The translations under genes and the position numbers were made by a program. The notes beneath the pieces were generated by a model that was not told the DNA's origin, made no database searches, and was given only the letters and a program-made list of their open reading frames with translations. Shown here piece by piece: positions 6,798 to 51,700 of a DNA stretch of 64,000 nucleotides (position 1 is its first letter; each line of letters starts with the position of its first letter). The stretch lies in contig CM059431.1 of the NCBI GenBank assembly GCA_030390025.1, positions 158,846,001 to 158,910,000 of the forward strand, written 5' to 3'. The stretch is from Squalus acanthias. Taxonomy: Eukaryota.

Positions 6798-9700
6798 CTG
6801 TAAAAGTGTAAATGAGAACAGGTTACAATACTATGTTTGCTTTGAAGCAATGAATAATTTGAACTAACTTTTAGAGCAGCAGGTTTTCTTTAGAGCCTTT
6901 CAAACACTGAGACGGCCAATGGCGCCTCACAGAGCAGGAATTTAGAGTTAAACTGCCTCCTTTTCGTAGAGTTAATAGAAACAACCTAGTACTTGCAACA
7001 CGTGGAGGTTGTTTAAAGTAAGTAGGAAGTAAAGAGTGGAAGCCCAAGGCAACGGATTCCAATCAGTGGTGCTGACGACTTTGTTGGAGTCCGGAGCAGA
7101 GGAACCAATAATCTGGGGACCACAGCAAAGGGAGAGGATAGACCAGAAATAAAAGAGGGTTTCTGAAGAAAACTGTAAAATTAAGACGCTCGAGACCGTA
7201 AAGGGAATTGTAGATGAGTAGGAGTCTTTCATAAATTGTCTGGGATAGCAAGTGAATGTCGGTCACCGACGAATGGGATTACGGATAAGTGGAGATGAGG
7301 GTGAATTGATGAATTGAAGCAGTCGAGCTCTGGAGATTCTATCTGGCAGTGCCCTTAAGTCGTTCAAGGAATCGAGTCTAAACGTCACAAAAGCGTATCT
7401 AAAACACGAGCAAATATTCATATGTTATCATATATCCAGAAAATTATAATATGATGATTGCGGACGGTAATCTGAGAATCCATTCGAAATTTATTGCTTG
7501 GATTCACCAGATGCTGCTGAGCAATTAGAAATAGTCGTGACTGTCGCTTGTTAGCCTAAAGAGCTCATAAATAATGCACAGATAGTTAAAGAAAGTAACA
7601 GTAAATGCAAGCTCATTCCTTCTTTCTTGTGAAAACTAAACTGCGAAACGGACCGGATAAATTGAAATACTGTGAATGTGAATGTACTCAAAATAAATTT
7701 GATAGATATCAATACAACAATTACAAGAACACAACATTGGGAAAAAGTTATTGATATCAAATTGAAATAATAACTAATTCTCAAATACCAGATCTGAAAC
7801 ATGACAATAGCTGGTAGGAATCATAATTGAATGTAACTGATTCTAAAATGCCTATCGATGGAAGTAGAAAGGCCTGAGAGATACTAAATAAAGAACGGCG
7901 CGGAATCAGCGGTCAGCGCAAAGCAAAGGCATTTGCTGCGGAAACAAAGTAAGCTTGACATAAAGATCTCGCAATCAGGTTTTCCGAAGTGTAATTCAAA
8001 TCAACGGGGCATCATTGGGAATCCCGAGTGCAAGCTGCTGTGAAGTCAACAGGCTGTCTAAGCATCCAACCAAAACGCAGAATTCTCACAGACAGAGAAC
8101 AAGGAAGTGAATAAGCTGTTAAACTTCTAACATTTAAAGAAATGACTGAGCGAACGAAACGAATATTGGGGCTCTAACATGGGGAAAATGCAAAGCAGAA
8201 ATAAGGAGGAAAAGTCTTTTAAAATAATTACATTTTCAGAATAATGTTAATTTTTATTTAAATGAATAAAGTTGTCTCTGCACAAAATAAAAAAATAGAT
8301 GTTCTGGCCTTCACATTTGTTTAGAATTCAATAAGCTGTTGCAATCCAGTTACGCCCTTCCCTTTCAGTCAAACTTTTAGTGGGGAATTCAAGAGCGCAA
8401 TTACTGTGAAAGAGCCGAAGATTACATCTGTTTCCCTGATTTGAGAGATTTCCATGATTACCGGCTCTTGGTGGGCACACCGCTGCCTCTGCAATTTTAT
8501 TGGAATCAAAGGAAGGGAACATAGGACCGAGCGAACAACGGGCAGCAGGTGCAATACCGACCGTTTTTCGGCGAGGACAAAACACAGGCCGTATCGCATC
8601 CATCGCCTATTATATGTTGCGCGCGAATAAACTTGATTTGAGCTGAATATCGGGCGTGTTTGTAACTGTCGGCAAATGTTACCGGCCATTGTGTGTCCCC
8701 GACAATTAGAATTTCATCCTCCTGGACATTAACTTAAAATAAGTTCCTCGACATAAATAATGAACTCTCTTACTCTGAAAGTAAACGAGATCTTTTGCAA
8801 ATAGATTTTGACATCGCCTACATTCTAGATCATGTTTTGTTCCTGTACCTGTCTTCTGTATCTCTGATAATGTGGCTTTCAGTTTGGGTTTTGTATTCTG
8901 CAGTTGAAGAAATATGTTCCACATTGTTCGTTCTCCCCGAGCTCCCTTTTCCAGCGCGGTATCGAAAATGCGTTGGGAAGCATCGTTTCTGCGCTGACTT
9001 TCAGCAAGTGTACTGATTTCCTAAAAAAAATATTGCAATCATATTGAACAAAGTATTTTACAAAATCAGCTAAGAAACGTCGGTTTTCTTTCTCCCTCTC
9101 TTTATGGGAGGAATGAATAGAAAAGCTCACAATCAGGTGACCAATATCTATTTCAACGGGATAAGTTATCAGGAGCGTCTCGAAAGAGCAGATAATTGCA
9201 GACGGCCGGAGAGGATTTGAGAGTTAATTCCAGAGTTTACGACCGAGGCAGCACAACGCACGGCTACCAATGGTGGCGTGAAGAGAATCGGAGTTGTGCA
9301 ATGGTTCAGAATTTGATGAGCACAGAGATCACGGAGGATTGTAGGGCTGGAGGATGTTGCAGAGATAGAGAGGACTAGCTTTGAGTCACCGAGGGAAGCT
9401 GAATTTTCTCAAATGATATGAAAAAATGTTAAGTGCCAAATAAAAGGGGAAAAGTCAGATTTCAGGAATATGCTTCGTGCAAAATGAAGCATTATTTGTT
9501 CTTAGTAACAGCAATGTTCTGGAAAGCGCAGAACCTGCTTTTAGAAACTCAAACTGCTCAGATTGTAAAACAATGCGGGTGAAATTGGAATCGGCGAGTC
9601 ACATGACAGGTGCTGATAGCGAATGGTCGGCTCGTGTTACACCCGTCCGTATTTCTTTATCATTGATTGCAATTAGACTTCCGTTCATTTCAAGTGTCAT

Positions 9701-12700: not shown

Positions 12701-15700
12701 AGATCGGAAATGCCGGTTTTAGCGCATGCGCTTCGCATGCCTGAAACCGGCATTACCGATGTCCCTGCGGGTGTGTACACAGCGCGTACTCACACGTAGG
12801 CATCGGAAAATACAAGCCATTGTGTCTCGGCATGTTCCTTGCAATCCTGAAATTTGAATTAATTGCTCCTTGGATAGGATGCCATTTATATCCGATTACA
12901 GAAACAACAGTAACCCGAATCCCTGCAGAAATACGGCCAAGGTAAATAGCTTAACTGCAAGACGTTTTCCAGTGAATTGTCAGTTGATTAGAGAGTCTCT
13001 TTCTGCAGATGGTTTTTGCATGTCACTTATGCGGCACAAATGTTACTTGCTAATTATCCACCAAAACTGGCATGTGGACCAGATCTTGTTGCATACGGGC
13101 ATGGACTGTTTAGTTCCCTTACGAATTCGGAATGGAATTGAACACTGCAATCATCAGTGTACAGCCCAAATTCTGACCATATGACAGAAAAACATGAATT
13201 GATGATGCAGCTGACGATATTTTGGTCGAGGATTCTTCCACGATGAACTCATGGTTATAACATGAGATGCTGCTCTCTTGTTATTTAACGCATTAAAAAC
13301 CTCAAGTTCTGTTTCCTTTGAGACGATATTAGCTGTAATCTAAGAGCACGTAAAAGGGTGGGCCGTGAGAAGGCTGTTATCATTCACCCCATGGCTTTCA
13401 AGTCCTCGCACCACCACACCTACGATGCGAACATAAAGTCGACAGAGAATGCAACCTTTAAACCATCAAAGCCATGCCGTTCCAGACAGACTTGAACAAT
13501 CTCCCACCAACTCGTCTCAAATTTAGGAGGCCATTTAGACAATACAAACATATATGTAGCATACCTTATGAATTGTTTCAGTAAACACGTTTGCATCTAA
13601 GAGCGATTGACTAACAGCTTCCACGAATTCTTCAATTGACGATTCTAGTCTCTGACGGTAGCAGCCGATAATTCTTCCAAGATGGATATCGGTGTAGATC
13701 GCCAACATTAGTAACATTTTAGTCTCTGAATTTTCTGTAAAAGTGTAAATGAGAACAGGTTACAATACTATGTTTGCTTTGAAGCAATGAATAATTTGAA
13801 CTAACTTTTAGAGCAGCAGCTTTTCTTTAGAGCCTTTCAAACAGTGAGACGGCCAATGGCGCCTCACAGAGCAGGAATTTAGAGTTAAAGCTGCCTCTTT
13901 TTCGTAGAGTTAAGAGAAACGACCTAGATCTTGCAACATGTGGAGGTTGTTTAAAGTAAGTAGGAAGTAAAGAGTGGAAGCCCAAGGCAACTGATTACAG
14001 ACAGTGGTGCTCACGACTTTGTTGGAGTCCGGAGAAGAGGAACCAATAATCTGGGGACCACAGCAAAGGGAGAGGATGGACCAGAAATAAAAGAGGGTTT
14101 CTGAAGAAGACTGTAAATTTAAGACGCTCGAGACCGTAAAGGGAACTGTAGATGAGTAGGAGTCTTTCACAAATTGTCTGGGACACGAAGTGAATGTAGG
14201 TCACCGACGAATGGGATTATGTATAAGTGGAAATGAGGGTGAATTGATGAATTGAAGCAGTCGAGCTCTGGAGATTCTATCTGGCAGTGCCCAAAAGTCG
14301 TTTAAGGAATCGAGTCTAAACCTCACAAAAGCGTATCTAAATCACGAGAAAATATTCATATGTTATCATATATCCAGAAAATTTAAATATGATGGTTGCG
14401 GACGGTGATCTGAGAATCCATTCGAAATGTATTGCTTGGAATCACCAGATGCTGCTGAGCAATTAGAAATAGTCGTGACTGTCGCTTGTTAGCCTAAAGA
14501 GCTAATAAATAATGCACAGATAGTTAAAGAAAGTAACAGTAAATGCAAGCTCATTCCTTCTTTCTTGGGAAAACTAAACTGCGATACGGACCGGAGAAAT
14601 TGAAATACTGTGAATCTAAATGTACTCAAAATAAATTTGATAGATATCAATACAACAATTACAAGAACACACCATTGGGATAATGTTATTGATATCAAAT
14701 TGAAATAATAATTAAATCTCAAATACCACATCTGAAACATGACAATAGCTGGTAGGAATCATAATTGAATGTACCTGATTCTAAAATGCCTATCGATGGA
14801 AGTAGAAAGACCTGAGAGATACTAAATAAAGAACGGCCCGGTATTAGCGGTCAGCGCGAAGCAAAGGCATTTGCTGCGGCCACAAAGTAAGCTTGACACA
14901 AAGATCTCGCAATCAGGTTTTCCGAAGTGTAATTCAAATCAACGGAGCATCATTGGGAATCCCGAGTGCAAGCTGCTGTGAAGTCAACAGGCTGTCTAAG
15001 CATCCAACCAAAACGCAGAATTCTCACAGACAGCGAACAAGGAAGTGAATAAGCTGTTAAACTTCTAACATTTAAAAAAATGATTCAGCGAACGAAACAA
15101 ATATTGGGGCTCTAACATGGGGAAAATGCAAAGCAGAAATAAGGAGGAAAAGTCTTTTAAAATAATTACATTTTCAGAATAATGTTAATTTTTATTAAAT
15201 GAATAAAGTTGTCTCAGCACAAAATTTAAATTAGATTCTCTGGCCATCAAATGTGTTTAGAATTCAATACGCTGTTGCAATCCAGTTACACCCTCCCTTT
15301 CAGTCAAACTATTAGTGGGGAATTCAAGAGCGCAATTACGGTGAAAGAGCCGAAGATTACATCAGTTTCCCTGATTTGAGAGATTTCCCTGATTACCGGG
15401 TCTGGGTGGGCACAGCGCAGCCTCTGCAATTTTATTGGAGTCAAAGGATGGGAACATGGGACCGAGCGAACAAATGCCAGCAGATGCAATACCGACCGTT
15501 TTTCGGCGAGGACAGAACACAGGCCGTGTCGCATCCATCGCCTATTATATGTTGCGCGCGAATAAACTTGACTTGAGCTGAATATCGGGCGTGTGCGTAA
15601 CTGTCGGCAAATGTTACCGGCCATTGTGTGTCCCCGACAATTAGAATTTCATCCTCCTGGACATTAACTTAAAATAAGTTCCAAGACATAAATAATGAAC

Positions 15701-18700
15701 TCTCTTACTCTGAAAGTAAACGAGATCTTTTGCAATTAGATTTTGAAACCGCATACCTTCTAGATCATGTTTTGTCCCTGTATCTCTGTTCTGTATCTCT
15801 GACAATGTCGCTTTCAGGTTGGGTTTTGTATTCTGCAGTTGAAGAAATATGTTCCACATTGTTCTTTCTCCCCGAGCTCCCTTTTCCAGCACGGTATCGA
15901 AAATGCGTTGGGAAGCATCGTTTCTGCGCGAACTTTCAGCAAGTGTACTGATTTCCTGAAAACATATTGCCATCATATTGAACAAAGTATTTTACAAAAT
16001 CAGCTAAGAAACGTCGGTTTTGTTTCACCCTCTCTTTACGGGAGGAATGAATAGAAAAGCTCACAATCAGGTGACCAAAATCTATGTCAACGAGATAAGT
16101 TATAAGGAGCGTCACTAAAGATCAGGGAATGGCAGATTGCCTGAGAGGATTAGAAAGTTAATTCCAGAGTTTAGAACCGTAGCAGCACACCGCACTGCTA
16201 CCAATGGAGGCGTGAAGAGAATCGGGGTTGCGCAATGGTTCAGAATTTGATGAGCACCGAGATCACGGAGGATTGTAGGGCTGGAGGATGTTGCAGAGAT
16301 AGAGAGGACCAGCGTTGAGTCACCGATGTAAGCTGAATTTTCTCAACTGATATGGAAAAATGTTAAGTGCCAAATAAAAGGGTAAAAGTCAGATTTCAGG
16401 AATATGGTTCGTGCAAAATGAAGCACTATTTGTTGTTAGTAACAGCAATGTTCTGGAAAGCTCACAAAGTGCTTTCAGAAACTCAAACTGCACAGATTGC
16501 AAAACAATGCGGTTGAAATTGGAATCGGCCAGTCGCATAACAGGTGCTGATAGCGAATGGTCGGCTCGTGTTACACGCGTCCGTATTTCTTTACCATTGA
16601 TTGCAATAAGACTTCCGTTCATTTCAAGTAACATTCATCGAAACAGCAGCTCAAGCTTATCAGTCAGTCCTTCATCTTCTATATGAACCATTTGCTTTGA
16701 ATACCTGAATAGTCCTGTCTTATGAGTAACTATATTATTTGAAGTGACTATGAAATGTGATCATTGACCCGAAAATTGTCTCATGCCAATCACCAAATTC
16801 TTAAACTGTCAACGTTTTACCTTCTGCTCGTTAACCTCTATGTTTCTTTGATTTGATTTATATAATCAACCCCCTACATTCAAGTTGTAAATCTACTTTC
16901 CATTTCCTTTTCTATGCACATCCAAATAATTCTTGTATGTGCTCCACTCCTTTTATTATCGTGTAATTCCTTTATATCGTATCGCAATCATTTCCGACTT
17001 GGTACCTTCGTATTGCTTCCCGACGGAATTATCTGATCCATTCCGTCCCAATATATCTGGGCTAGTGTGTTCTTGATTTGTGGAAATTGGTTATCCTGTA
17101 CATATATATTGCGTTGATTTACTGTTCTTCTGAATTCTAATGATATCATTGCTTCTTCGATATCCGTTATCCGTTTGCAGAAATGGATCCAATACTCATT
17201 CCTTCCCTGTTGTTCTGGAAACGTACCCATCTATCTCACGTCCTGGATACGTGGCAGATAGCACACTCCCTCTTCCACCCGTACATCACTTCGATACTTT
17301 AGATATTTAAAGTCATCCATATCTCTGATACCATCGCTAAAATGTCTCCATTTTTTCAATATATCGCTTCCTCAATACGTGACCCACCACTTGTGCATGA
17401 TAATGAGCTCCTCATAGTTAATGGCCAGTTTTTTCGATCGCAGGAATCCCGGGTGCGCAGGTCTGCAATCTGGAAAAATCTACGCCCTTACCTTCGGGAT
17501 CCAGGTACGCACAGGATTCCGATCCTGGGCCTCTCCAATCTCCACTTGCGCACGGCCGTATTATCCCAGAGGCACAGGCAGATTACAGGGTTCATGGGAT
17601 CATGTGGGCTATGGGGATCCAATCAAAGTAGGGAAACTGCATTCATACACTTGACAGGAACACCTGTCAAATATATGAATGGAGATCACCCCAAAAACAT
17701 ATTGGCCCGGAAAATCCTTTCGCAGGCCGCCCCCGGGCGGAGGACTGCGATCTGGAAAAATCTGTGCCTGCACCGGAGGGCTCCCGGGAGGCGCAGAGTT
17801 CCGTTGCTTGGTCTCTCCAAACTTCCGGTGCGCAGGGCCCACGTATCCCAGAGGCGCAGGCGGTTCGCAGCGTCCCTGGGATCACGTAGGGAGCCAATCA
17901 GAGAAGGGAATCTCCCTTCATACACTTGACAGTAAGACCTGTCCAATATATGAATGGAATTCACCCGAACACATAGTAAAAGCTAGCCTTAGCTCTGCTT
18001 ATAGCAGGCATACAATTTCTAATGGTTTTCTGCAGGCGGGGGTTCTCCAGAAAGCGGAACGATCCGTCCGCAGAGGACCTTCTCCAGGCTTGGCGTCCAA
18101 TCTGTCAAGAGCATTCTTGACAGATCGGAAATTACGGATTTCAGCGCATGCGCTTGGCATGCCTGAAACCGGCATTTCCGATGTCCCTACGGTTGTGTAC
18201 ACAGCGCGTACACACCCGTAAGGATCGGAAAATACCGGCCCATTAACGCCAAGCTCCCAGACGTGCGCTTACATTAACCATGTCTTCATATCATAACTTC
18301 CTAGAGCATCATCAGACAAACTCTACCTTCAACCAATCAGCTTTATTCACCATCCTTTATTAATATATTTGTTATATAACTTCAGTAAATAATCGAAAAG
18401 AGATCAGATAGACATCAAGGATGTACTCGGAATTTTATTTTAAATAAGACATGATGGCTGTCATGACAGGAGATGCCGGTAATGGTGATGTCCCTGAGCA
18501 TTGGGCAGAAGAATGAACGTGAAGGCTTAAAGTTGCGTAACCCATGGACTGGATGAATTTTGCGAGTGCTTGGTGAGACGTAGAATAATGCAGATATTTT
18601 GAGGTTGTTAATTATAAGTAATAACTGTGGCAGGGAAGTTGGTAGATAGGCAGGTAGAATCAGCCATGCAGTGAAGTTGGAAGGAGAAAAGAAATGGAAG

Positions 18701-21700
18701 CAACGACTTGAATATGTTCAGTAGAAAGTTCTAGAAATTGGTGCCACCGGCAGTGACTCACACGAATCGTCTCGTTTAATTAAAATGCTCGTCTGCTTTG
18801 CTAAAGAACGGACAGAATTTCTCGGCCGTGACCGACAGCTTATTTTAAATATGTCAGTTAATTTATTTTCCTGAGATTAGATATATGTGGCTATTAGATG
18901 TTCTATCTAGCTCCAGGATATCCATTGGGTCTTTGCTGCGGACGCGTGATGGTTCTGCTGCTAGTGGTATCTTATTCAAATATTCATTACAATATTTGGC
19001 CCGTAATTTCCTTTAGGAGGCTGCCTGCGTGCGGTTGACTCCTGTCGGGAATAAATCTACGCCCTCACCTGAGTGCTCCCGAGGAGGAGCCATTTCCGAT
19101 CCTGGGCCTTACCACAGCAGAAATGCGCAGGGCCCACCTGATCCCAGGGACGCTTGCGAAGCTCGTGAGCCCCTGAGACAGGTGGACAGGCGAGAGAATA
19201 GAAGGGAATCTCCCTTCATACCTTTGACAGATAGAGCTGTCAAAGGTATGAATGGAGATCACCCCAAAAACAAATCAAAACAATAAATACATTTTTCAAA
19301 AGCATCGCGTTTTTAAAATGAGTAACATTTAAATAAATGTTAAATATTTTAAACAAAAATTTAATGTTTTGAAAAAATTGATTATAGATTTTTACGGAGC
19401 TAAAATTAAACTTACCTTATTTAGAAGTACTTAAAAATTATAAATGAGCGAAAACATATGTATTTTTTTACTTTTTTAACCTCTTGTGCTCTGAAAAGCA
19501 GGCCTTACGCCTGCTTTTACCAGGAGTACGATTTTTAAGTGTTTTCAAGACCGGATGTCCTGCAGCAAGCGGAAATCTCCACCCGCAGAGGCAATTCTCT
19601 GGGGCAAGCGTCCGATCTGTCAAGATGATTCTTGACAGATCGGAAATGCCGGTATTAGAGCATGCGCTTCGCATGCCTGAAACCGGTATTACCGATGTCC
19701 CTACCGGTGTGCACACAGCGCGTACTCACACGTAGGCAACGGAAAATACGAGCCATTGTGTCTTGGCGTGTTCCTTGCAATCCTGAAATTTGAATTAATT
19801 GCTCCTTGGATAGGATGCCATTTATGACCGATTACAGAAACAACAGTAACCCGAATCCCTGCAGAAATACGGCCAAGGTAAATAGCTTAACTGCAAGACG
19901 TTTTCCACTGAATTATCAGTTGATTAGATAGTCTCTTTCTGCAGATGGTTTTTGCATGTCACTTATGCGGCACAAATGTTACTTGCTAATTATCCACCAA
20001 AACTGGCATGTTGACCAGATCTTGTTGCATACGGTCATGGACTGTTTAGTTACCTGAGGAATTGGGAATGGAATTCAACACTGCAATCATCAGTGTACAG
20101 CCCAAATTCCGACCGTATGACAGAAAAACATGAATTGATGATGCAGCTGACAATATTTGGGTCGAGGATTCTTCCACGTTGAACTCATGGTTATAACATG
20201 AGATGCTGTTCTCTTCTTATTTAACGCATTAAAAACCTCAAGTTCTGTTTCCTTTGAGACGATATTAGCTGTAATCTAAGAGCACGTAAAAGGGTGGGCC
20301 GTGAGAAGGCTGTTATCATTCACCCCATGGCTTTCAAGTCCTTGCACCACCACACCTGCGCCGCGAACATAATGTCGCCAGAGAATACAACCTTTAAACC
20401 AGCAAAGCCATGCCGTTCCAGACCGACTTGAACAATCTCCCACCAACCCGTCTCAAATTTATGAGGCCTATTTAGACAATTCCAACATATATGTAGCATA
20501 CCTTATGAATTGTTTCAGTAAACACGTTTGCATCTAAGAGCGATTGACTAACAGCTTCCACGAATTCTTCAATTGACGATTCTAGTCTCTGACGGTAGCA
20601 GCCGATAATTATTCCAAGCTGGATATCCGTGTAGCTCGCCAACATTAGTAACATTTTAGTATCTGAATTTTCTGTAAAAGTGTAAATGAGAACAGTTTAC
20701 AATACTATGTTTGCTTTGAAACAATGAATAATTTGAACTAACTTTTAGAGCAGCAGCTTATCTTTAGAGCCTTTCAAACAGTGAGACGGCAAATGGCGCC
20801 TCACACAGCAGGAATTTAGAGTTAAACTGCCTCCTTTTCGTAGAGTTAAGAGAAACGACCTAGTACTTGCAACATGTGGAGGTTGTTTAAAGTAAGTAGG
20901 AAGTAAAGAGTGGAAGCCCAAGGCAACGGATTCCAACCAGTGGTGCTGACGACATTGTTGGAGTCCGGAGCAGAGGAACCAATAATCTGGGGACCACAGC
21001 AAAGGGAGAGGATGGACCAGAAATAAAAGAGGGTTTCTGAAGAAGACTGTAAAATTAAGACGCTCGAGACCGTAAAGGGAATTGTAGATGAGTAGGAGTC
21101 TTTCACAAATTGTCTGGGATAGCAAGTGAATGTTGGTCACCGACGAATGGGATTATGGATAAGTGGAAATGAGGGTGAACTGATGAATTGAAGCAGTCGA
21201 GCTCTGGAGATTCTATCTGGAAGTGCCCTTAAGTCGTTTAAGGAAACGTCACAAAAGCGTATCTAAATCACGAGCAAATATTCATATGTTATCATATATC
21301 CAGAAAATTAAAATATGATGGTTGCGGACGGTGATCTGAGAATCCATTCGAAATTTATTGCTTGGAATCACCAGATGCTGCTGAGCAATTAGAAATAGTC
21401 GTGACTGTCGCTTGTTCGCCTAAAGAGCTAATAAATAATGCACAGATAGTTAAAGAAAGTAACAGTAAATGCAAGCTCATTCCTTCTTTCTTGGGAAAAC
21501 TAAACTGCGATACGGACCGGAGAAATTGAAATACTGTGAATCTAAATGTACTCAAAATAAATTTGATAGATATCAATACAACAATTACAAGAACACAACA
21601 TTGGGAAAAAGTTATTGATATCAAATTGAAAAAATAACTAAATCTCAAATACCACGTCTGAAACAAGGCAATAGCTGGTAGGAATCATAATTGAATGTAA

Positions 21701-36700: not shown

Positions 36701-39700
36701 CTGCGCGAACTTTCAGCAAGTGTACTGATTTCCTGAAAACAAATTGCAATCATATTGAACAAAGTATTTTACAAAATCAGCTAAGAAACGTCGGTTTTGT
36801 TTCACCCTCTCTTTACGGGAGGAATGAATAGAAAAGCTCACAATCAGGTGACCAAAATCTATGTCAACGAGATAAGTTATAAGGAGCGTCACTAAAGATC
36901 AGGGAATGGCAGATTGCCGGAGAGGATTAGAAAGTTAATTCCAGAGCTTAGAACCGTAGCAGCACAACGCACTGCTACCAATGGAGGCGTGAAGAGAATC
37001 GGGGTTGCGCAATGGTTCAGAATTTGATGAGCACCGAGATCACGGAGGATTGTAGGGCTGGAGGATGTTGCAGAGATAGAGAGGACCAGCGTTGAGTCAC
37101 CGAGGTAAGCTGAATTTTCTCAACTGATATGGAAAAATGTTAAGTGCCAAATAAAAGGGTAAAAGTCAGATTTCAGGAATATGGTTCGTGCAAAATGAAG
37201 CACTATTTGTTGTTAATAACAGCAATGTTCTGGAAAGCTCACAGAGTGCTTTCAGAAACTCAACCTGCACAGATTGCAATACAATGCGGTTGAAATTGGA
37301 ATCGGCCAGTCGCATGACAGGTGCTGATAGCGAATGGTCGGCTCGTGTTACACGCGTCCGTATTTCTTTACCATTGATTGCAATAAGACTTCCGTTCATT
37401 TCAAGTAACATTCATCGAAACAGCAGCTCAAGCTTATCAGTCAGTCCTTCATCTTCTATATGAACCATTTGCTTTGAATACCTGAATAGTCCTGTCTTAT
37501 GAGTAACTATATTATTTGAAGTGTTTATGAAATGTGATCATTGTCCCGAAAATTGTCTCATGCCAATCACCAAATTCTTAAACTGTCAACGTTTTACCTT
37601 CTGCTCGTTAACCTCTATGTTTCTTTGATTTGATTTATATAATCAACCCCCTACATTCAAGTTGTAAATCTACTTTCCATTTCCTTTTCTATGCACATCC
37701 AAATAATTCTTGTATGTGCTCCACTCCTTTTATTATCGTGTAATTCCTTTATATCGTATCGCAATCATTTCCGACTTGGTACCTTCGTATTGCTTCCCGA
37801 CGGAATTATCTGATCCATTCCGTCCCAATATATCTGGGCTAGTGTGTTCTTGATTTGTGGAAATTGGTTATCCTGTACATATATATTGCGTTGATTTACT
37901 GTTCTTCTGAATTCTAATGATATCATTGCTTCTTCGATATCCGTTATCCGTTTGCAGAAATGGATCCAATACTCATTCCTTCCCTGTTGTTCTGGAAACG
38001 TACCCATCTATCTCACGTCCTGGATACGTGGCAGATAGCACACTCCCTCTTCCACCCGTACATCACTTCGATACTTTAGATATTTAAAGACATCCATATC
38101 TCTGATACCATCGCTAAAATGTCTCCATTTTTTCAATATATCGCTTCCTCAATACGTGACCCACCACTTGTGCATGATAATGAGCTCCTCATAGTTAATG
38201 GCCAGTTTTTTCGATCGCAGGAATCCCGGGTGCGCAGGTCTGCAATCTGGAAAAATCTACGCCCTTACCTTCGGGATCCAGGTCCGCACAGGATTCCGAT
38301 CCTGGGCCTCTCCAATCTTCACTTGCGCATGGCCGTATTATCCCAGAGGCACAGGCAGATTACAGGGTTCATGGGATCATGTGGGCCATGGGGATCCAAT
38401 CAAAGTAGGGAAACTGCAATCATACACTTGACAGGAACACCTGTCAAATATATGAATGGAGATCACCCCAAAAACATATTGGCCCGGAAATTCCTTTCGC
38501 AGGCCGCCCCCGGGCGGAGGACTGCGATCTGGAAAAATCTGTGACTGGATTGGAGGACTCCCGGGAGGCGCAGAGTTCCGTTGCTTGGTCTCTCCAAACT
38601 TCCGGTGCGCAGGGCCCACTTATCCCAGAGGCGCAGGCGGTTCGCAGCGTCCCTGGGATCACGTAGGGAGCCAATCAGAGAAGGGAATCTCCCTTCATAC
38701 ACTTGACAGTAAGACCTGTCCAATATATGAATGGAATTCACCCCGAAAACATAGTAAAAGCTAGCCTTAGCTCTGCTTATAGCAGGCATACAATTTCTAA
38801 TGGTTTTCTGCAGGCGGGGGTTCTCCAGAAAGCGGAACTATCAGTCCGCAGAGCACCTTCTCCGGGCTTGGCGTCCAATCTGTCAAGAGCATTCTTGACA
38901 GATCGGAAATTACGGATTTCAGCGCATGCGCTTGGCATGCCTGAAACCGGCATTTCCGATGTCCCTACGGTTGTGTACACAGCGCGTACACACCCGTAAG
39001 GATCGGAAAATACCGGCCCATTAACGCCAAGCTCCCAGACGTGCGCTTACATTTACCATGTCTTCATATCATAACTTCCTAGAGCATCATCAGACAAACT
39101 CTACCTTCAACCAATCAGCTTTATTCACCATCCTTTATTTATATATTTGTTATATAACTTCAGTAAATAATCGAAAAGAGATCAGATAGGCATCAAGGAT
39201 GCGACTCGGAATTTTATTTTAAATAAGACATGATGGCTGTCATGACAGGAGATGCCGGTAATGGTGATGTCCCTGAGCATTGGGCAGATGAATGAACGTG
39301 AAGGCTTAAAGTTGCGTAACCCATGGACTGGATGAATTTTGCGAGTGCTTGGTGAGACGTAGAATAATGCAGATATTTTGAGGTTATTAATTATAAGTAA
39401 TAACTGTGGCAGGGAAGTTGGTAGATAGGCAGGTAGAATCAGCCATGCAGTGAAGTTTGAAGGAGAAAATAAATGGAAGCAACGACTTGAATATGTTCAG
39501 TAGAAAGTTCTAGAAATTGGTGCCACCGGCAGTGACTCACACGAATCGTCTCGTTTAATTAAAATGCTCGTCTGCTTTGCTAAAGAACGGACAGAATTTC
39601 TCGGCCGTGAGCGACAGCTTATTTTAAATATGTCAGTTAATTTCTTTTAATGAGATTAGATATATGTGGCTATTAGATGTTCTATCTAGCTCCAGGATAT

Positions 39701-42700
39701 CCATTGGGTCTTTGCTGCGGACGCGTGATGGTTGTGCTGCTAGTGGTATTTCATTCAAATATTCATTACAATATTTGGCCCGTAATTTCCTTTAGGAGGC
39801 TTCCTACGTGCGGTTGACTCCTGTCGGGAATAAATCTACGCCCTTACCTGAGTGCTCCCGAGGAGGAGCCATTTCCGATCCTTGGCCTTACCACAGCAGA
39901 AATGCGCAGGGCCCACCTGATCCCAGGGACGCTTGCGAAGCTCGTGAGCCCCTGAGATAGGTGGACAGGCGAGAGACTAGAAGGGAATCTCCTTTAATAC
40001 CTTTGACAGATAGAGCTGTCAAAGGTATGAATGGAGATCACCCCAAAAACAAATCAAAACAATAAATACATTTTTCAAAAGCATCGCGTTTTTAAAATGA
40101 GTAACATTTAAATAAATTTTAAATATTTTAAACAAAAATTTAATGTTTTGAAAAAATTGATTATAGATTTTTACGGAGCTAAAATTAAACTTACCTTATT
40201 TAGAAGTACTTAAAAATTATAAATGAGCGAAAATATATGTATTTTTTTACTTTTTTAACCTCTTGTGCTCTGAAAAGCAGGCCTTACGCCTGCTTTTACC
40301 AGGAGTACGATTTTTAAGTGTTTTCAAGACCGGATGTCCTGCAGCAAGCGGAAATCTCCACCCGCAGAGGCAATTCTCTGGGGCAAGCGTCCGATCTGTC
40401 AAGATGATTCTTGACAGATCGGAAATGCCGGTATTAGCGCATGCGCTTCGCATGCCTGAAACCGGCATTACCGATGTCCCTACCGGTGAGTACACAGCGC
40501 GTACTCACACGTAGGCAACGGAAAATACGAGCCATTGTGTCTTGGCGTGTTCCTTGCAATCCTGAAATTTGAATTAATGGCTCCTTGGATAGGATGCCAT
40601 TTATGTCCGATTACAGAAACAACAGTAACCCGAATCCCTGCAGAAATACGGCCAAGGTAAATAGCTTAACTGCAAGACGTTTTCCAGTGTATTATCAGTT
40701 GATTAGATAGTCTCTTTCTGCAGATGGTTTTTGCATGTCACTTATGCGGCACAAATGTTACTTGCTAATTATCCACCAAAACTGGCATGTTGACCAGATC
40801 TTGTTGCATACGGGCATGGACTGTTTCGTTACCTGAGGAATTGGGAATGGAATTCAACACTGCAATCATCAGTGTACAGCCCAAATTCTGACCGTATGAT
40901 AAAAAAACATGAATTGATGATGCAGCTGACAATATTTGGGTCGAGGATTCTTCCACGTTGAACTCATGGTTATAACATGAGATGCTGTTCTCTTATTATT
41001 TAACGCATTAAAAACCTCAAGTTCTGTTTCCTTTGAGACAATATTAGCTGTAATCTAAGAGCACGTAAAAGGGTGGGCCGTGAGAAGGCTGTTATCATTC
41101 ACCCCATGGCTTTCAAGTCCTTGCACCACCACACCTGCGCCGCGAACATAATGTCGCCAGAGAATACAACCTTTAAACCATCAAAGCCATGCCGTTCCAG
41201 ACCGACTTGAACAAACTCCCACCAACCCGTCTCAAATTTATGAGGCCTATTTAGACAATTCCAACATATATGTAGCATACCTTATGAATTGTTTCAGTAA
41301 ACACGTTTGCATCTAAGAGCGATTGACTAACAGCTTCCACGAATTCTTCAATTGACGATTCTAGTCTCTGACGGTAACAGCCGATAATTATTCCAAGCTG
41401 GATATCCGTGTAGCTCGCCAACATTAGTAACATTTTAGTATCTGAATTTTCTGTAAAAGTGTAAATGAGAACAGTTTACAATACTATGTTTGCTTTGAAG
41501 CAATGAATAATTTGAAATAACTTTTAGAGCAGCAGCTTTTCTTTAGAGCCTTTCAAACACTGAGACGGCCAATGGCGCCTCACAGAGCAGGAATTTAGAG
41601 TTAAACTGCCTCTTTTTCGTAGAGTTAAGAGAAACGACCTAGTACTTGCAACTTGTGGAGGTTGTTTAAAGTATCTAGGAAGTAAAGAGTGGAAGCCCAA
41701 GGCAACGGATTCCAGCCAGTGGTGCTGACGACTTTGTTGGAGTCCGGAGCAGTGGAACCAATAATCTGGGGACCACAGCAAAGGGAGAGGATGGACCAGA
41801 AATACAAGAGGGTTTCTGAAGAAGACTGTAAAATTAAGACGCTCGAGACCGTAAAGGGAATTGTAGATGAGCAGGAGTCTTTCTCAAATTGTCTGGGATA
41901 GCAAGTGAATGTAGGTCACTGACGAATGGGATTATGCATAAGTGGAAATGAGGGTAAATTGATGAATTGAAGCAGTCGAGCTCTGGAGATTCTATCTGGC
42001 TGTGCCCAAAAGTCGTTTAAGGAATCGAGTCTAAACCTCACAAAAGCGTATCTAAATCACGAGAAAATATTCATATGTTATCATATATCCAGAAAATTAA
42101 AATATGATGGTTGCGGACGGTGATCTGAGAATCCATTCGAAATTTATTGCTTGGAATCACCAGATGCTGCTGATCAATTAGAAATAGTCGTGACTGTCGC
42201 TTGTTCGCCTAAACAGCTAATAAATAATACACAGATAGTTAAAGAAAGTAACAGTAAATGCAAGCTCATTCCTTCTTTCTTGGGAAAACTAAACTGCGAT
42301 ACGGACCGGAGAACTTGAAATACTGTGAATCTAAATGCACTCAAAACAAATTTGATCGATATCAATACAACAATTACAAGAACACACCATTGGGAAAAAG
42401 TTATTGATATCAAATTGAAATAATAATCAACTCTCAAATACCACATCTGAAACATGACAATAGCTGGTAGGAATTATAATTGAATGTACCTGATTCTAAA
42501 ATGCCTATCGATGGAAGTAGAAAGACCTGAGAGATACTAAATAAAGAACGGCCCGGAATTAGCGGTCAGCGCGAAGCAAAGGCATTAGCTGCGGTCACAA
42601 AGTAAGCTTTACACAAAGATCTCGCAATCAGGTTTTCCGAAGTGTAATTGAAATCAATGGAGCACCATTGGGAATCCCGAGTGCAAGCTGCTGTGAAGTC

Positions 42701-45700
42701 AACAGGCAGTCTAAGCATCCAACCAAAACGCAGAATTCTCACAGACAGCGAACAAGGAAGTGAATAAGCTGTTAAACTTCTAACATTTAAAAAAAATGAT
42801 TGAGCGAACGAAACAAATATTGGGGCTCTAACATGGGGAAAGTTCAAAGCAGAAATAAGGAGGAAAAATCCTTTAAATTAATTACACTTACAGAATAATG
42901 TTAATCTTTATTTAAATGAATAAAGTTGTCTCTGCACAAAATTTAAATTAGATTTCCTGGTCATCACATTTGCTTAGAATTCAATACGTTGTTGCAATCC
43001 AGTTACACCCTTCCCTTTCAGTCAAACTTTTAGTGGGGAATTCAAGAGCACAATTACTGTGAAAGAGTCGAAGATTACATCAGTTTCGCTGATTTGAGAG
43101 ATTTCCCTGATTACCGGCTCTGGGTGGGCACAGCGCAGCCTCTGCAATTTTATTGGAGTCAAAGGAAGGGAACATAGGACCGAGCGAACAACGGGCAGCA
43201 GATGCAATACCAGCCGTTTTTCGGCGAGGACAGAACACAGGCCGTATCGCATCCATCGCCTATTATATGTTGCGCGCGAATAAACTTGAATTGAGCTGAA
43301 TATCGGGCGTGTGTGTAACTATCGGCAAATGTGATCCGGCCATTGTGTGTCCCCGACAATTAGAATTTCAACCTCCTGGACATTAACTTAAAATAAGTTC
43401 CTCGACATAAATAATGAACTCTCTTACTCGGAAAGTAAACGAGATCTTTTGCAATTAGATTTTGACATCGCCTACCTTCTAGATCATGTTTTGTCCCTGT
43501 ATCTCTGTTCTGTATCTCTGACAATGTCGCTTTCAGTTTGGGTTTTGTATTCTGCAGTTGAAGAAATATGTTCCACATTGTTCTTTCTCCCCGAGCTCCC
43601 ATTTCCAGCACGGTATCGAAAATGCGTTGGGAAGCATCGTTTCTGCGCTGACTTTCAGCAAGTGTACTGATTTCCTAAAAAAAATATTGCAATCATATTG
43701 AACAAAGTATTTTACAAAATCAGCTAAGAAACGTCGGTTTTGTTTCTCCCTCTCTTTATGGGAGGAATGAATAGAAAAGCTCACAATCAGGTGAACAAAA
43801 TCTATGTCAAAGAGATAAGTTATAAGGAGCGTCACTAAGGAGCAGGGAATGGCAGACGGCCGGAGAGGATTACAGAGTTCATTCCACAGTTTAGGACCGA
43901 GGCAGCACAACGCACGGCTACCAATGGTGGCGTGAAGAGAATCGGGGTTGCGCAATGGTTCAGAATTTGATGAGCACAGAGATCACGGAGGATTGTAGGG
44001 CTGGAGGATGTTGCAGAGATAGAGAGGACCAGCGTGGAGTCACCGAGGGAAGCTGAATTTTCTCAACTGAAAGGAAAAATGTTAAGTGCCAAATAAAAGG
44101 GGAAAAGTCAGATTTCAGGAATATGGTTCGTGCAAAATGAAGCATTAATTGTTGTTAGTAACAGCAATGCTCTGGAAAGCTCACAACGTGCTTTTAGAAA
44201 CTCGAACTGCACAGATTGTAAAACAATGCGGGTGAAAATGGAATCGGCCAGTCGCATGACAGGTGCTGATGGCGTATGGTAGGCTCGTGTTACAGGCGCC
44301 AGTATTTATTCCCATTGATTGCAATTAGAATTCCGTTCATTTCAAGTATCATTCATCGAAACAGCAGCACAAGCTTATCAGTCAATTCTTCATATTCTAT
44401 ATGAAACATTTGCTTTGAATAACTGTATAGTCCTGTCTTATGAGTTACTATTTTATTTGCAGTGTTTAATAACTACCTAGAGCATCATCAGAAAATCGCT
44501 ACCTTCAACTAATCAGCTTTATTCACCATGCTTTATTAATATATGTGTTACATAACTTCAGGAAATATTCGAAAAGAGATCAGATAGACATCATGGATGA
44601 GACTCGGAATTTGATTTTAAATAGGACATGATGGCTGTCATGACTGGAGATGCCGGGAATGTTATGTCTCTGAGTAATGGGCAGAAGAATGAACGTGAAG
44701 GCTTAAAGTTGCGTAACCCATGGACTGGATGAATTTTGCGAGTGCTTGGTGAGACGTAGAATAATGCAGATATTTTGAGGTTGTTAATTATAAATAATAA
44801 CTGTGGCAGGGAAGTTGGTAGATAGGCAAGTAGAATCAGCCATGCAGTGAAGTTGGAAGGAGAAAATTAATGGAAGCAACGACTTGGATATGTTCAGGAG
44901 AAAGTTCTAGAAATTGGTGCCACCGGCAGTGACTCACACGAATCGTCTCGTTTAATTAAAATGCACGTCACCTTTGCTAAAGAACGGACAGAATTTCGCG
45001 GCCGTGAGCGACAGCTTATTTTAAATATGTCAGTTAACTTCTTTTCCTGAGATTAGATATATGTGGCTTTTAGATATTCTATCTAGCTCCAGGATATCCA
45101 TTGGGTATTTGCTGAGTAGGCGTGATGCTTGTGCTGCTAGTGGTATCTTATTCAAATATTCATTACAATATTTGGCCCGTAATTTCCGTTAGGAGGCTTC
45201 CTGCGTCCGCATGCCGCCTATCGGAAAGAAATCTACGCCCTTCCCTGAGGGCTCCCGAGGAGGAGCCATTTCCGATCCTGCGCCTGTCCACAGTAGAAAT
45301 GCGCAGGGCCCACCTGATCCCAGGGACGCTTGCGAAGATCGTGAGCCCCTGAGATAGGTGGACAGGCGAGAGAATAGAAGGGAATCTCCGTTCCTACCTC
45401 TGACAGATAGACCTGTCAAAGGTATGAATGGAGATCACCCCAAAAACAAATCAAAACAATAAATACATTTTTACAAAGTATCGCGTTTTTATAATGAGTA
45501 ACATTTATATTAATTTAAATATTTTAAACAAAAGTTTAATGCTTTGAAAAAATATTTAAAGATTTTTAACGAGCTAAAATTAAACTTACCTTATTTATAA
45601 TTACTTTCAAATTATAAGTGAGTGAAAAAATAAATATTTGTTTACTTTTTTAAGCTCTTGTGCTGGGAAAAGCAGGCCTTACGCCTGCTTTTACCAGGAG

Positions 45701-48700
45701 TACGATTTTTAAGTGTTTTCAAGAGCGGATGTCCTGCAGCAAGCGGAAATCTCCACCCGCAGAGGCCCTTCTCTAGGGCAAGCGTCCGATCTGTCAAGAT
45801 GATTCTTGACAGATCGGAAATGCCGGTTTTCACCGCATGCGCTTCGCATGCCTGAAACCGGCATTACCGATGTCCCTACGGGTGTGTACACAGCGCGTAC
45901 TCACACGTAGGCATCGGAAAATACGAGCCATTGGCCCAGAAATTAAACATCGATGGTTCCCGCGGGAGTAAGTATTCCCCGCGAATTCGCACTCCGCGCC
46001 GACCTTTTTGTTTCGGGCCCACACGAACTTGAGTTTCAGGGCCTCTCCCTGTTGCAAGCGTGCAGTGCTTGCGTGTCCCTGATGCGCAATTAGTTCGTGC
46101 GAGCTCTGGGATCACGTGATTCAGTTAGAGCCAATGGCAGCACAACATCTTTCATTCATAGTTTTGACAGCAAGGGCTGTTAAAGCTATGAATACTACAA
46201 GACAGCAAAAGAACAGCTAAACCTCAATTAAATTTTAAAAAAGCCATCACATTAATAAAATAACTACATTAAAAAAAATTTTGAAAAAATTTAAAACCTT
46301 TTTAAAAGTTATAAAAATAAACTTACCTTTCTTTAAAGACTCGAAAAAAGATAAACCTGTTGAATTTTTTTTTGAATAACACTTAATTAACTACTTACCT
46401 TGTTAAAAGGTGGTCCTGCGGCTGCTTCCTTTATGTGTAAAATCTTCACCACTTACCTGCGCGTTCAAACCTGAAAGAAAAACTGAATGCACTGTTCACT
46501 TAGGCACCGCCACCTTTGCAAAACACCAAGTGCCAGATTCCCGCGCAAGCGCAGTGCATACAGGGAACCGGCAATTCGGGACCGAATACGCGAGAGTACA
46601 CAGTGCGTACTCTCGCGTATTCGGTCTAATTTTCGGGCCATTGTGTCTTGGCGTGTTCCTTGCAATACTGAAATTTGGATTAATTGCTCCTTGGATAGGA
46701 TGCCATTTATGTCCGATTACAGAAACAACAGTAACCCGAATCCCTGCAGAAATACGGCCAAGGTAAATAGCTTAACTGCAAGACGTTTTCCAGTGAATTA
46801 TCAGTTAATTAGAGAGTCTCTTTCTGCAGATGGTTTCTGCCTGGCACTTATGCGGCACAAATGATGCTTGCTAATTATCCACCAAAACTGGCATGTTGAC
46901 CAGATCTTGTTGCATACGGGCATGGACTGTTTAGTTACCTGAGGAATTGGGAATGGAATTGAACACTGCAATCATCAGCATAAAGCACAAATTCTGACCG
47001 AAGGACAGAAACATTTTTATTGATGAAGCAGCTGACGGTATTTGGGTCGAGGATTCTTCCACGATGAACTCATGGTTATAACATGAGATGCTGTTCTCTT
47101 GTTATTTAACACATTAAAATTGACAAGTTCTGTTTCCTTTGAGACGATATTAGCTGTAATCTAAGAGCACGTGAAAGGGTAGGCCGTGAGAAGGTTGTTA
47201 TCATTCACCCCATGGCTATCAAGTCCTCGCACCACCACACCTACCCCGCGAACATAAAGTCGCCAGAGAATACAACCGTTAAACCCGCAAAGCCATGACG
47301 TTCCAGACCGATTTGAACAATCTCCCACCAAACCGTCTGAAATTTAGGAGGCCATTTAGACAATTCCAACATCTATGTAGCATACCTTATGAATTGTTTC
47401 AGTAAACACGTTTGCATCTAAGAGCGATTGACTAACAGCTTCCAAGAATTCTTCAATTGACGATTCTAGTGTCTGACGGTAGCAGCCGATAATTCTTCCA
47501 AGCTGGATATCCGTGTAGCTCGCCAACATTAGTAACATTTTAGTATCTGAATTTTCTGTAAAAGTGTAAATGAGAACAGGTTACAATACTATGTTTGCTT
47601 TGAAGCAATGAATAATTTGAACTAACTTTTAGAGCAGCAGCTTTTCTTTAGAGCCTTTCAAACACTGAGACGGCCAATGGCGCCTCAGAGAGCAGGAATT
47701 TAGAGTTAAAGCTGCCTCCTTTTCGTAGAGTTAAGAGCAACGACCTAGATCTTGCAACATGTGGATGTTGTTTAAATTAAGTAGCAAGTAAAGAGTGGAA
47801 GCCCAAGGCAACGGATTCCAGACAGTGGTGCTAACGACTTTGTTGGAGTCCGGAGCAGAGGAACCAATAATCTGGGGAAAACAGCAAAGGGAGAGGATGG
47901 ACCAGAAATAAAAGAGGGTTTCTGAAGAAGACTGCAAAATTAAGACGCTCGAGACCGTAAAGGGAATTGTAGATGAGTAGGAGTCTTTCACAAATTGTCC
48001 GGGATAGCAAGTCAATATAGGTCACCGACGACAGGGATTATGGATAAGTGGAAATGAGGGTGAATTGATGAATTGAAACAGTCGAGCTCTAGGGATTCTA
48101 CCTGGCAGTGCCCAAAAGTCGTTTAAGGAATCGAGTCTAAACCTCACACAAGCGTATCTAAATCACGAGCAAATATTCATAAGTTATCATATATCCAGAA
48201 AATTATAAGATGATGGTTGCGGACGGTGATCTGAGAATCCATTCGAAATTTATTGCTTGAAATCACCAGATGCTGCTGAGCAATTAGAAATTGTCGTGAC
48301 TGTCGCTTGTTAGCCTAAAGAGCTAATAAATAATGCACTGTTAGTTAAAGAAAGTAATAGTAAATGCAAGCTCATTCCTTCTTTCTTGGGAAAACTAAAC
48401 TGCGATACGGACCGGAGAAATTGAAATACTGTGAATCTAAATGTACTCAAAATAAATTTGATAGATATCAATAAAACAATTACAAGAACACACCATTGGG
48501 AAAAAGTTTTTGATATCAAATTGAAATAATAACTAAATCTCAAATACCACATCTGAAACATGACAATAGCTGGTAGGAATCATAATTGATTGTACCGGAT
48601 TCTAAAATGCCTATCGATGGAAGTAGAAAGTCCTTAGAGATACTAAATAAAGAACGGCCCGGTATTAGCGGTCAGCGCCAAGCAAAGGCATTTGCTGCGG

Positions 48701-51700
48701 CCACAAAGTATGCTTGACACAAAGATCTCGCAATCAGGTTTTCAAAAGTTTAATTCAAATCAACGAAGCATCATTGGGAATCCCGAGTGCAAGTTGCTGT
48801 GAAGTCACCAGGCTGTCTAAGCATCCAACCAAAACGCAGAATTCTCACAGACAGCGAACAAGGAAGTGAATAAGCTGTTAAACTTCTAACATTTAAAAAA
48901 ATGATTGAGCGAACGAAACACATATTGGGGCTCTAACATGAGGAAAATGCAAAGCAGAAATTAGGAGGAAAAATCTTTTAAAATAATTACATTTTCAGGA
49001 TAATGTTAATTTTTATTGAAATGAATAAAGTTGTCTCTGCACAAAATTAAAATTAGATTTTCTGCCCATTACATTTGTTTAGAATTCAATACGCTGTTGC
49101 AATCCAGTTATACCCTTCCCTTTCAGTCAAACTTTTAGTGGGGAATTCAAGAGCGCAATTATTGTGAAAGAGCCGAAGATTACATCAGTTTCCCTGATTT
49201 GAGAGATTTCCCTGATTACCGGCTCTGGGTGGGCACAGCGCAGCCTCTGCAATTTTATTGGAGTCAAAGCAAGGGAACATAGGACCGAGCGAACAACGGG
49301 CAGCAGATGCAATGCCGGCCGTTTTTCGGCGAGGACAAAACACAGGCCGTATCGCATCCATCGCCTATTATATGTTGCGCGCGAATAAACTTGAATTATG
49401 CTGAATATCGGGCGTGTGTGTAACTGTCGGCAAATGTCAACCGGCCATTGTTTGTCCCCGACAATTAGAATTTCATCCTCCTGGACATTAACTTAAAATA
49501 AGTTCCAAGACATAAATAATGAACTCTCTTAATCTGAAAGTAAATGAGATCTTTTGCAATTAGATTTTGACATCGCCTACCTTCTAGATCATGTTTTGTC
49601 CCTGTACCTGTCTTCTGTATCTCTGACAATGTCGCTTTCAGTTTGGGTTTTGTATTCTGCAGTTGAAGAAATATGTTCCACATTGTTCTTTCTCCCCGAG
49701 CCCCCTTTTCCAGCGCGGTATCGAAAATGCGTTGGGACGCATCGTTTCTGCGCTGACTTTCAGCAAGTGTACTGATTTCCTAAAAAAATATTGCAATCAT
49801 ATTGAACAAAGTATTTTACAAAATCAGCTAAGAAACGTCGGTTTTCTTTCTCCCTCTCTTTATGGGAGGAATGAATAGAAAAGCTCACAATCAGGTGACT
49901 AAAATCTATGTCAAGGAGATAAGTTATAAGGAGCGTCTCTAAAGAGCAGATAATGGCAGACGGCCGGAGAGGATTACAGAGTTAATTCCAGAGTTTCGGA
50001 CCGAGGCAGCACAACGCACGGCTGCCAATGGTGGCGTGAAGAGAATCGGGATTGCGCAATGGTTCAGAATTTGATGAGCACAGAGATCACGGAGGATTGT
50101 AGAGCTGGAGGATGTTGCAGAGATAGAGAGGACTAGCGTTGAGTCACCGAGGGAAGCTGAATTTTCTCAATTGATATGAAAAAATGTTAAGTGCCAAATA
50201 AAAGGGGAAAAGTCAGATTTCAAGAATATGGTTCGTGCAAAATGAAGCATTACTTGTTGTTAATAACAGCAATGTTCTGGAAAGCTCACAACGTGCTTTT
50301 AGAAACTCAAACTGCACAGATTGTAAAACAATGCGGGTGAAATTGGAATCGGCCAGTCGCATGACAGGTGCTGATAGCGAATGGTCGGCTCGTGTTACAC
50401 GCGTCCGTATTTCTTTCCCATTGATTGCAATTCGACTTCCGTTCATTTCAAGTATCATTCATCTAAACATTAGTACAAGCATATCAGTCAATCCTTCATC
50501 TTCTATATTAACCATTTTCTTTTGAATACCTGAATAGTCCTGTCTTGTGAGTAACTATTTTATTTGAAGTGTTTATGAAATGTGATCATTGTCCCGAATT
50601 CTCTCACCTGCCAATCACTAAATTCTTAAACTGTCAACGTTTTACCTTCTGCTCGTTAACCTCTATGTTTCTTTGATTTGATTCATATAATCAACCCCCT
50701 ACATTCAATTTGTAAATCTACTTTTCATTTCCTTTTCTATGCACATCCAAGTAATTCTTGTATGTGCTCCACCCGTTTTATTATCGTGTAATTCCTATAT
50801 ATCGTATCGCAATCATTTCCTTCTGGTACCTTCGTATTGCTTCCCGACGGAATTATCTGATCCATTCCGTCCCAATATATCTGGGCTAGTGTGTTCTTGA
50901 TTTGTTGAAATTGGTTATCCTGTCCATATATATTGCTTTGATTTACTGTTCTTCTGAATTCTAATGATATCATTGCTTCTTAGATATCCGTTATCCGTTT
51001 GCAGAAATTGGATCCAATACTCATTCCTTCCCTGTTGTTCTGGAAACGTACCCATCTATCTCAGGTCTTGGATACGTGGCAGACATCACACTCCCTCTTC
51101 CACCAATACATCACTTCTATACTTTAGATATTTAAAGTCACCCATATCTCTGATACCCTCGCTAAAATGATTCCATTTTTTCAATATATCGCTTCCTCAA
51201 TTCGTGACCCACAACTTGTGCATGTTAATTGAACTCCTCATAGTTAATGGCCAGTTTTTTCGATCGCAGTAATCCCGGGAAGAAGGTCTGCAATCTGGAA
51301 AAATCTACGCCCTTACCTTAGGGATCCCGGGACGAACACGATTCCGATCCTGGGCCTCTCCAATCTCCACTTGCGCAGGGCCCTATTATCCCAGAGGCAC
51401 AGGCAGATTACAGGGTGCCTGGGATCATGTGGGCCATGGGGAGTCAAGCAAAGTAGGAAAACTGCATTCATACACTTGACAGGAAGACCTGTCAAATATA
51501 TGAATGGGGATCACCCCAAAAACATAGTGGGCCAGAAATTCCTTTCGCAGGCCGCCCGCGGGCGGAGGACTGCGATCTGGAAAAATCTGTGCCTGGACCG
51601 GAGCGCTCCCGCGAGGCGCAGAGTTCCGTTGTTTGGTCTCTCCAAACTTCCGGTGCGCAGGGCCCAAATATACAAGAGGCGCAGGCAGTTCGCAGCGTCC

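Follow-up and report, generated by a model that had tools for sequence, protein, structure and literature searches.

We analysed a stretch of 64,000 nucleotides (nt) of Squalus acanthias DNA (assembly GCA_030390025.1, contig CM059431.1, positions 158,846,001 to 158,910,000; the whole stretch is called the window and positions below are counted within it). In the window, a gene on the minus strand carries a tandem array of paired exons, A and B, in which exon B can end at up to three candidate splice donors, termed D1, D2 and D3. The explanation that we favour, by a modest degree, is that D2 is the normal donor and that two copies, B1 and B3, have shifted to the upstream donor D1 after one change that disabled D2 on a D1-bearing background.

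Self-alignment places the array, with units of ~6.93 kb, at 3083 to 57248. Each unit holds a 170-nt exon A, running from phase 1 to phase 0, and an exon B that starts in phase 0 (at 9020, 15955, 22869, 29796, 36732, 43674 and 49779 for B1 to B7). We counted eight copies of exon A and seven of exon B in the window, and none of the 15 exons of the array contains an internal stop or an indel. Exon B measures 172 nt to D1, 199 nt to D2 and 247 nt to D3 and ends in phase 1 at all three; the A plus B module is phase-symmetric, which means that skipping a whole module keeps the frame. The units are mosaic and pairwise 93.6–98.6% identical (98.6% for U2 and U5), and a mis-assembly of the array appears unlikely because the copies differ by 1.4–6.4%. 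Between 3083 and 44468 a higher-order period of three units is also visible, with an identity of 96.2% at a three-unit offset versus 93.2–93.9% at other offsets. The features, all on the minus strand, are as follows.

3083 to 57248, minus strand: tandem array of ~6.93-kb units, mosaic, with a three-unit higher-order period
56242 to 56411, minus strand: exon A8 (170 nt), from phase 1 to phase 0; encodes the N-terminal half of the predicted CARD and is the most divergent copy of A
49581 to 49779, minus strand: exon B7 to D2, 199 nt; D1 is GT (last exon base 49608), D2 strong, D3 absent; contigs of relatives join at 49581
47386 to 47555, minus strand: exon A7; a second, in-frame acceptor lies 9 nt into the exon (exon start 47546)
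43476 to 43674, minus strand: exon B6 to D2; D1 is AT (43503), D3 at 43428
41281 to 41450, minus strand: exon A6
36534 to 36732, minus strand: exon B5 to D2; D1 is AT (36561), D3 at 36486
34341 to 34510, minus strand: exon A5
29598 to 29796, minus strand: exon B4 to D2; D1 is AT (29625), D3 at 29550
27404 to 27573, minus strand: exon A4
22698 to 22869, minus strand: exon B3 to D1 (predicted), 172 nt; D2 (22671) weakened and giving TAA with the main acceptor; D3 absent
20502 to 20671, minus strand: exon A3
15757 to 15955, minus strand: exon B2 to D2; D1 is AT (15784), D3 at 15709
13565 to 13734, minus strand: exon A2
8849 to 9020, minus strand: exon B1 to D1 (predicted); D2 (8822) weakened and giving TAA with the main acceptor; D3 at 8774
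6628 to 6797, minus strand: exon A1; judging by spacing, the B exon paired with it would be on the far side of the LINE at the left edge of the window

The donors differ between copies in a simple way. D1 is GT in B1, B3 and B7 and AT in B2, B4, B5 and B6; D2 reads AAG/gt in five of the seven copies and AAT/gt in B1 and B3; D3 is GT in five copies and TT in B3 and B7, and the frame stays open beyond D3 in all seven. All letters, coordinates and phases that had been given in a preliminary description made from the sequence alone match on re-reading. We scored the sites with a rough frequency matrix (not MaxEntScan) and with U1-pairing energies. On the matrix the strong D2 reaches 4.3–4.5 bits, D3 1.9–2.0, D1 1.3 and the weak D2 1.0; the pairing energies (kcal/mol) are −9.2 or −5.7 for D2, −7.7 for D1, −5.3 or −4.5 for D3 and −4.0 for the weak D2. 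By both measures D2 is weakened by the T allele, but on D1 they conflict. The proposal that every copy retains a good donor is not established for B1 and B3, where D1 scores 1.3 bits and the weak D2 1.0, while U1 pairing rates D1 well.

Four contig sets, guessed to be RNA, were compared with the unit at 46600–52690, in which B7 has an intact D1 as well as an intact D2; the contigs come from two studies, with rare variants dropped, and represent relatives or paralogues that are 84–96% identical to the window. The joint from A to B lies at the predicted position in all four runs, which bears out the exon model. Joints from B to A occur in three of the four runs, in three clear contigs, every one of which ends at 49581, the D2 site. 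In X1 (record 3) the joint runs from D2 to the main acceptor and shows a single altered letter. In X2 (record 8) and X3 (record 12) it has GT-AG ends and leads from D2 to a position 9 nt into exon A. A further X1 contig, record 1, also reaches 49581, with undetermined letters in between. None of the four sets has a joint at D1 (49608) or D3 (49533) of the B7 unit. D2 is thus the working donor in the relatives and the 9-residue linker that it adds is coding. For the window array we infer from this that D2 is used in B2, B4, B5, B6 and B7. For the four copies that lack D1 this is as the preliminary description had predicted; that description ran its range to 49608, the D1 end of B7, and B7 more likely uses D2. 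Since three contigs run B-A-B, a single transcript links successive modules. We also considered whether the linker might have a micro-exon of its own, but in the three clear contigs B joins A directly. The in-frame acceptor 9 nt inside exon A to which D2 is joined in X2 and X3 is present in A1–A7, in seven of the seven copies checked. The closest contig, X1 record 2, aligns to 47385–47558 with six differences in exon A and continues for 481 nt upstream of A without a listed joint to exon B; this upstream part probably represents the 5′ exon in the gene of that relative.

In B1 and B3, the use of D2 would carry a cost that the preliminary description missed. The last exonic base at D2 opens a split codon, and the T found there in B1 and B3, followed by the AA that starts exon A, gives TAA with the main acceptor. 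The earlier statement that the extensions contain no stops is therefore correct inside them and fails at this junction. A chain spliced at D2 throughout has two stops, whereas one that uses D1 for B1 and B3 is open over 899 codons. The weak D2 joined to the acceptor 9 nt inside exon A reads TAT (Tyr) and leaves no stop in either copy. To keep an open frame, B1 and B3 therefore need D1, the acceptor at +9 or, in B1 only, D3, and B3, from its letters, is the tightest case, with D3 absent. The junction stop sharpens the prediction of D1 use in the two copies, which with the main acceptor would become a necessity; it equally admits the alternative of a change at D2 that is simply damaging.

D1 itself has a counterpart in homologues. 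We compared 21 B-to-A junctions from 16 of 17 proteins (P0003 omitted); these junctions are not independent, many being isoforms or paralogues from one stingray, and one of those counted, in P0004, is mis-projected (value −5). A G directly follows the D1 position at 14 of the 21. At precisely this position two models of a single catshark gene part ways, G versus V, as a codon split by a phase-1 exon end would predict, and a catshark homologue has a linker of equal, 9-residue, length at that place, seen in two gene models. In the structure model of the homologue P0001, helix 6 ends at residue 105, which corresponds to the D1 position; the 9-residue linker lies outside this last helix and residues 112–117 have a predicted local distance difference test (pLDDT) value below 50. 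By the homologue junctions D1 is the older exon end of the family, its phase inherited and no coincidence. A zero-residue join in P0001 was also considered as proof that loss of the linker is tolerated and was rejected, as P0008 has another exon there.

Exons A and B together encode what is predicted to be one CARD-type domain, on the strength of homologue matches, Pfam CARD matches in the homologues, a six-helix model and fold matches to solved CARDs. A phmmer (HMMER) search with exon A8 gave seven matches: five annotated shark and ray proteins with repeats, one catshark fragment and one repetitive false match, P0003, which was dropped as a homologue. Exon B is 48–57% identical to the same shark and ray proteins, and the domain is, by sequence comparison, homologous to the N-terminal domain of an NLRP-related NLR family of sharks and rays. 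The Pfam CARD family PF00619 (cut-off 23.9 bits) is exceeded in P0005 (30.3 bits) and P0008 (40.4 bits) and narrowly missed in P0004 (22.9) and P0007 (23.4); three single half-domain exons of the window gave no match to it. The model of P0001, which is not the window protein, has six helices per repeat, and in Foldseek it matches the CARDs of ARC, APAF-1, NLRC4, NOD1 and CARD8 with probabilities of 0.94–1.00 and target template-modelling scores of 0.68–0.84, with no E-value below 0.001. The ESM Atlas gave no usable match for exon A or exon B. Word-based searches found no homologue among 14 candidates for exon B, and only P0001 itself among 77 candidates for P0001 residues 110–235.

Each donor varies by a single allele, which at D1 comprises three linked changes (B1, B3 and B7 versus the rest), at D2 one change (B1 and B3) and at D3 also one (B3 and B7). 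The D2 site is in four-gamete conflict with three neighbouring sites, and 157 informative sites fall in 25 patterns along the unit; U1 and U4, for example, show four differences over the 800 columns upstream of exon B, compared with 12 over 200 inside the exon. The donor pattern is best attributed to recombination between copies, by crossover or gene conversion, and not to repeated mutation. The caution in the preliminary description that the copies are not independent events was therefore well placed, as single alleles have been shuffled among mosaic copies, while its notion of turnover as a repeated process gives way to about one shift over the seven copies. The AT allele at D1 completes a perfect 11-nt direct repeat through its three linked changes, which would suit a single template switch from the GT to the AT allele; the 9-residue-linker repeat of the catshark resembles the AT allele, contrary to that order. 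Selection on the exons is visible as well: 30 of 369 exon columns vary compared with 513 of 3,483 intron columns (p = 0.0003), and 13 of 31 exon changes are synonymous against 22% expected (p = 0.01). These values support purifying selection on the exons; the constraint is mild, at a ratio of non-synonymous to synonymous differences per site (pN/pS) of ~0.4–0.6.

We propose the following mechanism. Each unit would encode one CARD from exon A and exon B, and the units would be spliced into a chain. D2 would be the normal donor of exon B, adding the 9-residue linker after the last CARD helix, as seen in the relatives' contigs, while D1, 27 nt upstream at the older exon end of the family, is present in three copies. 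On a D1-bearing background, the final exonic base of D2 changed once from G to T, which weakened this donor and turned its junction into a stop codon. B1 and B3 would most likely splice at D1, losing the linker and keeping the frame, and crossover or gene conversion would have shuffled the three single alleles among the copies. The distance between D1 and D2 is 27 nt, a stop-free multiple of three, as an in-frame shift demands. That the array records a single splice-site shift, made in frame by way of a redundant donor, and not three-way or repeated turnover, is to us a somewhat better than even proposition.

Several observations weigh against this account. No read has D1 in use: the contig sets lack copies B1 and B3, the relatives' D1 allele is not visible in them, and being drawn from relatives they speak for the array only indirectly. 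A search for RNA returned no run on record as RNA that contains the array, a result without bearing on whether the array is expressed; the four guessed-RNA sets contain 0–5% of its words, the best of them 5%. D1 barely outscores the weak D2 on the rough matrix. A join with no linker occurs at only one of the 21 homologue junctions, in P0001, where the P0008 model of the same gene contradicts it, and it models poorly (pLDDT below 50 at P0001 residues 397–410). The T allele at D2 is found in two of the three copies with D1 and in none of the four without it, an association that amounts to a single event (p = 0.14). A haplotype with both donors lost would require a crossover within 27 nt, so that its absence is no evidence of selection. 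Finally, the freedom of the exons from indels does not reach significance (p = 0.09).

A possible, though unlikely, alternative is that the change from G to T simply damages the donor. Both B1 and B3 would then still use D2 or be mis-spliced, the protein would stop after about five CARDs, its transcript probably subject to nonsense-mediated decay, and D1 would be a bystander in a young array that is loosening. The TAA at the D2 junction, the mild constraint (pN/pS), the low matrix score of D1 and the fact that D1 use is never seen in the relatives' contigs all fit this reading. It is less easily reconciled with the 15 exons free of internal stops and indels, with the restriction of the T allele to D1-bearing copies or with a D1 that pairs well with U1 and coincides with a genuine exon end in models of homologues.

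It is improbable that B1 and B3 keep the frame in some other way, namely through the weak D2 joined to the +9 acceptor of exon A, D3 in B1, or the skipping of a whole A plus B module. The first of these is lent some weight by the joint of D2 to that acceptor in X2 and X3, by the presence of the acceptor in A1–A7 and by the TAT codon that it gives in both copies, and the last by the phase symmetry of the module. The weak D2, however, has the poorest U1 pairing of the three donors (−4.0), X1 uses the main acceptor, and the joint in X2 and X3 may reflect a 9-nt difference between paralogues rather than a choice of acceptor. We give little credence to the idea that the stop-forming D2 allele of B3 and B1 is a working length switch, in which D1 reads on and the weak D2 ends the protein. 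If true, it would yield soluble chains of five or seven CARDs (counted from A8) besides a full-length anchored or receptor form, and donor choice could tune CARD-filament signalling.

D3 is best read as an unused intronic look-alike, a chance site. The 48-nt segment between D2 and D3 varies like intron (p-distance 0.062 versus 0.053) and six of its seven changes are non-synonymous (pN 0.066 versus pS 0.047), both on a small sample; with pN above pS on these 48 nt and no joint at D3, the extension does not behave as coding sequence. Intron sites as strong as D3 (score of at least 1.5) occur at 3.5 per kb, 3,360 of 7,123 stretches of 16 codons in introns (47%) contain no stop, and the phase of a chance D3 would match in one of three cases. 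Only D3 needs such accounting, because D1 is the family exon end and D2 the used donor. The suggested use of D3 with a 25-residue linker thus finds no support in the relatives' contigs. The full scheme of the preliminary description, a buffered set of three working donors with linkers of 0, 9 or 25 residues and a phase held by selection, is accordingly the least probable reading: every positive-scoring GT within the scanned 230 nt is in phase 1 in all seven copies, as it would predict, but no contig joins at D3, the D2–D3 segment is intron-like, the phase of D3 is a one-in-three event and each site has one variant allele.

The introns of the array hold further elements. A long interspersed nuclear element with endonuclease and reverse transcriptase, presumably CR1, lies on the plus strand at 99–2776, where it interrupts the intron after A1 and ends close to a short tandem at 3055–3084. 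Another plus-strand element, with a reverse transcriptase and a GIY-YIG match, is found at 52670–54277 inside the A8–B7 intron, and we take it to be Penelope. Tandem elements of ~280 nt, 70–80% alike, occur at 51284–52070 and at the equivalent place in each unit; each can form a hairpin of up to 17 bp with a 4-nt loop, they are matched by many contigs in all four runs, and they are probably a dispersed repeat. An Rfam search of the window, these hairpin elements included, gave no matches. The A7–B6 intron is rearranged and shorter than the others (3,711 nt versus ~4,540 nt). It contains, at 46457–46470 on the minus strand and outside the read-compared region 46600–52690, a 14-nt stretch that has a pyrimidine tract with an AG as well as a donor close to the consensus. 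No second copy of this stretch is present in the window, and its inclusion would shift the frame.

In-frame splice-site shifts through a redundant site are known. Passages of the CESAR paper report 360 real mammalian cases, most of 3 or 6 nt (PMC4914097). As in the shifts described there, the array would have a second donor nearby, a mutated older donor and an exon change that is a multiple of three; unlike those between-species cases, mostly of 3 or 6 nt, the difference here is 27 nt, lies among tandem copies within one gene, was spread by recombination and involves a junction stop. An expanded NLRP-related family is described in a whale shark paper, the CARD passages of which make no mention of tandem arrays in that family (PMC8455134). 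Our literature searches gave no paper evidently on shark poly-CARD exon arrays or their donors, and nothing related on donor turnover in tandem arrays.

The closest relatives of the array are found among annotated proteins. In Scyliorhinus torazame (XP_072354261.1, P0008; GCB66031.1, P0001) tandem copies of the same domain are ~40–58% identical to the window exons and share with it a linker of 9 residues, seen at one junction, and an exon that ends at the D1 position, seen at a different one; in contrast to the 94–99% DNA identity in the window, these repeats are old and divergent, and the models are automatic and mutually conflicting. In P0008, four CARDs are separated from a CARD-NACHT part by a hydrophobic, membrane-like stretch, and this model may be two genes fused by annotation. 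In Mustelus asterias (XP_078087540.1, P0002, ‘NACHT, LRR and PYD domains-containing protein 3-like’) there are three near-identical copies of the domain. P0002 and the Hypanus sabinus proteins P0009–P0017 have one to three N-terminal copies, resembling the window in this, but they carry a NACHT domain, which is not in the window, and their linkers are of 5 or 16–21 residues. The second repeat of the Cetorhinus maximus protein (XP_078390056.1, P0004) is 52–55% identical and ends like the D1-bearing allele, whereas this protein has only two repeats and a C-terminal hydrophobic stretch after the CARD, a membrane-type exon not in the window.

The mechanism is already known; the poly-CARD array is the more unusual feature. 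If D1 is indeed used in B1 and B3, the gene would hold a splice-site shift caught midway, with the redundant (B7), D2-only and D1-dependent states side by side. The splicing of B1 and B3 would decide between a chain of at least seven CARDs and a stop after five.

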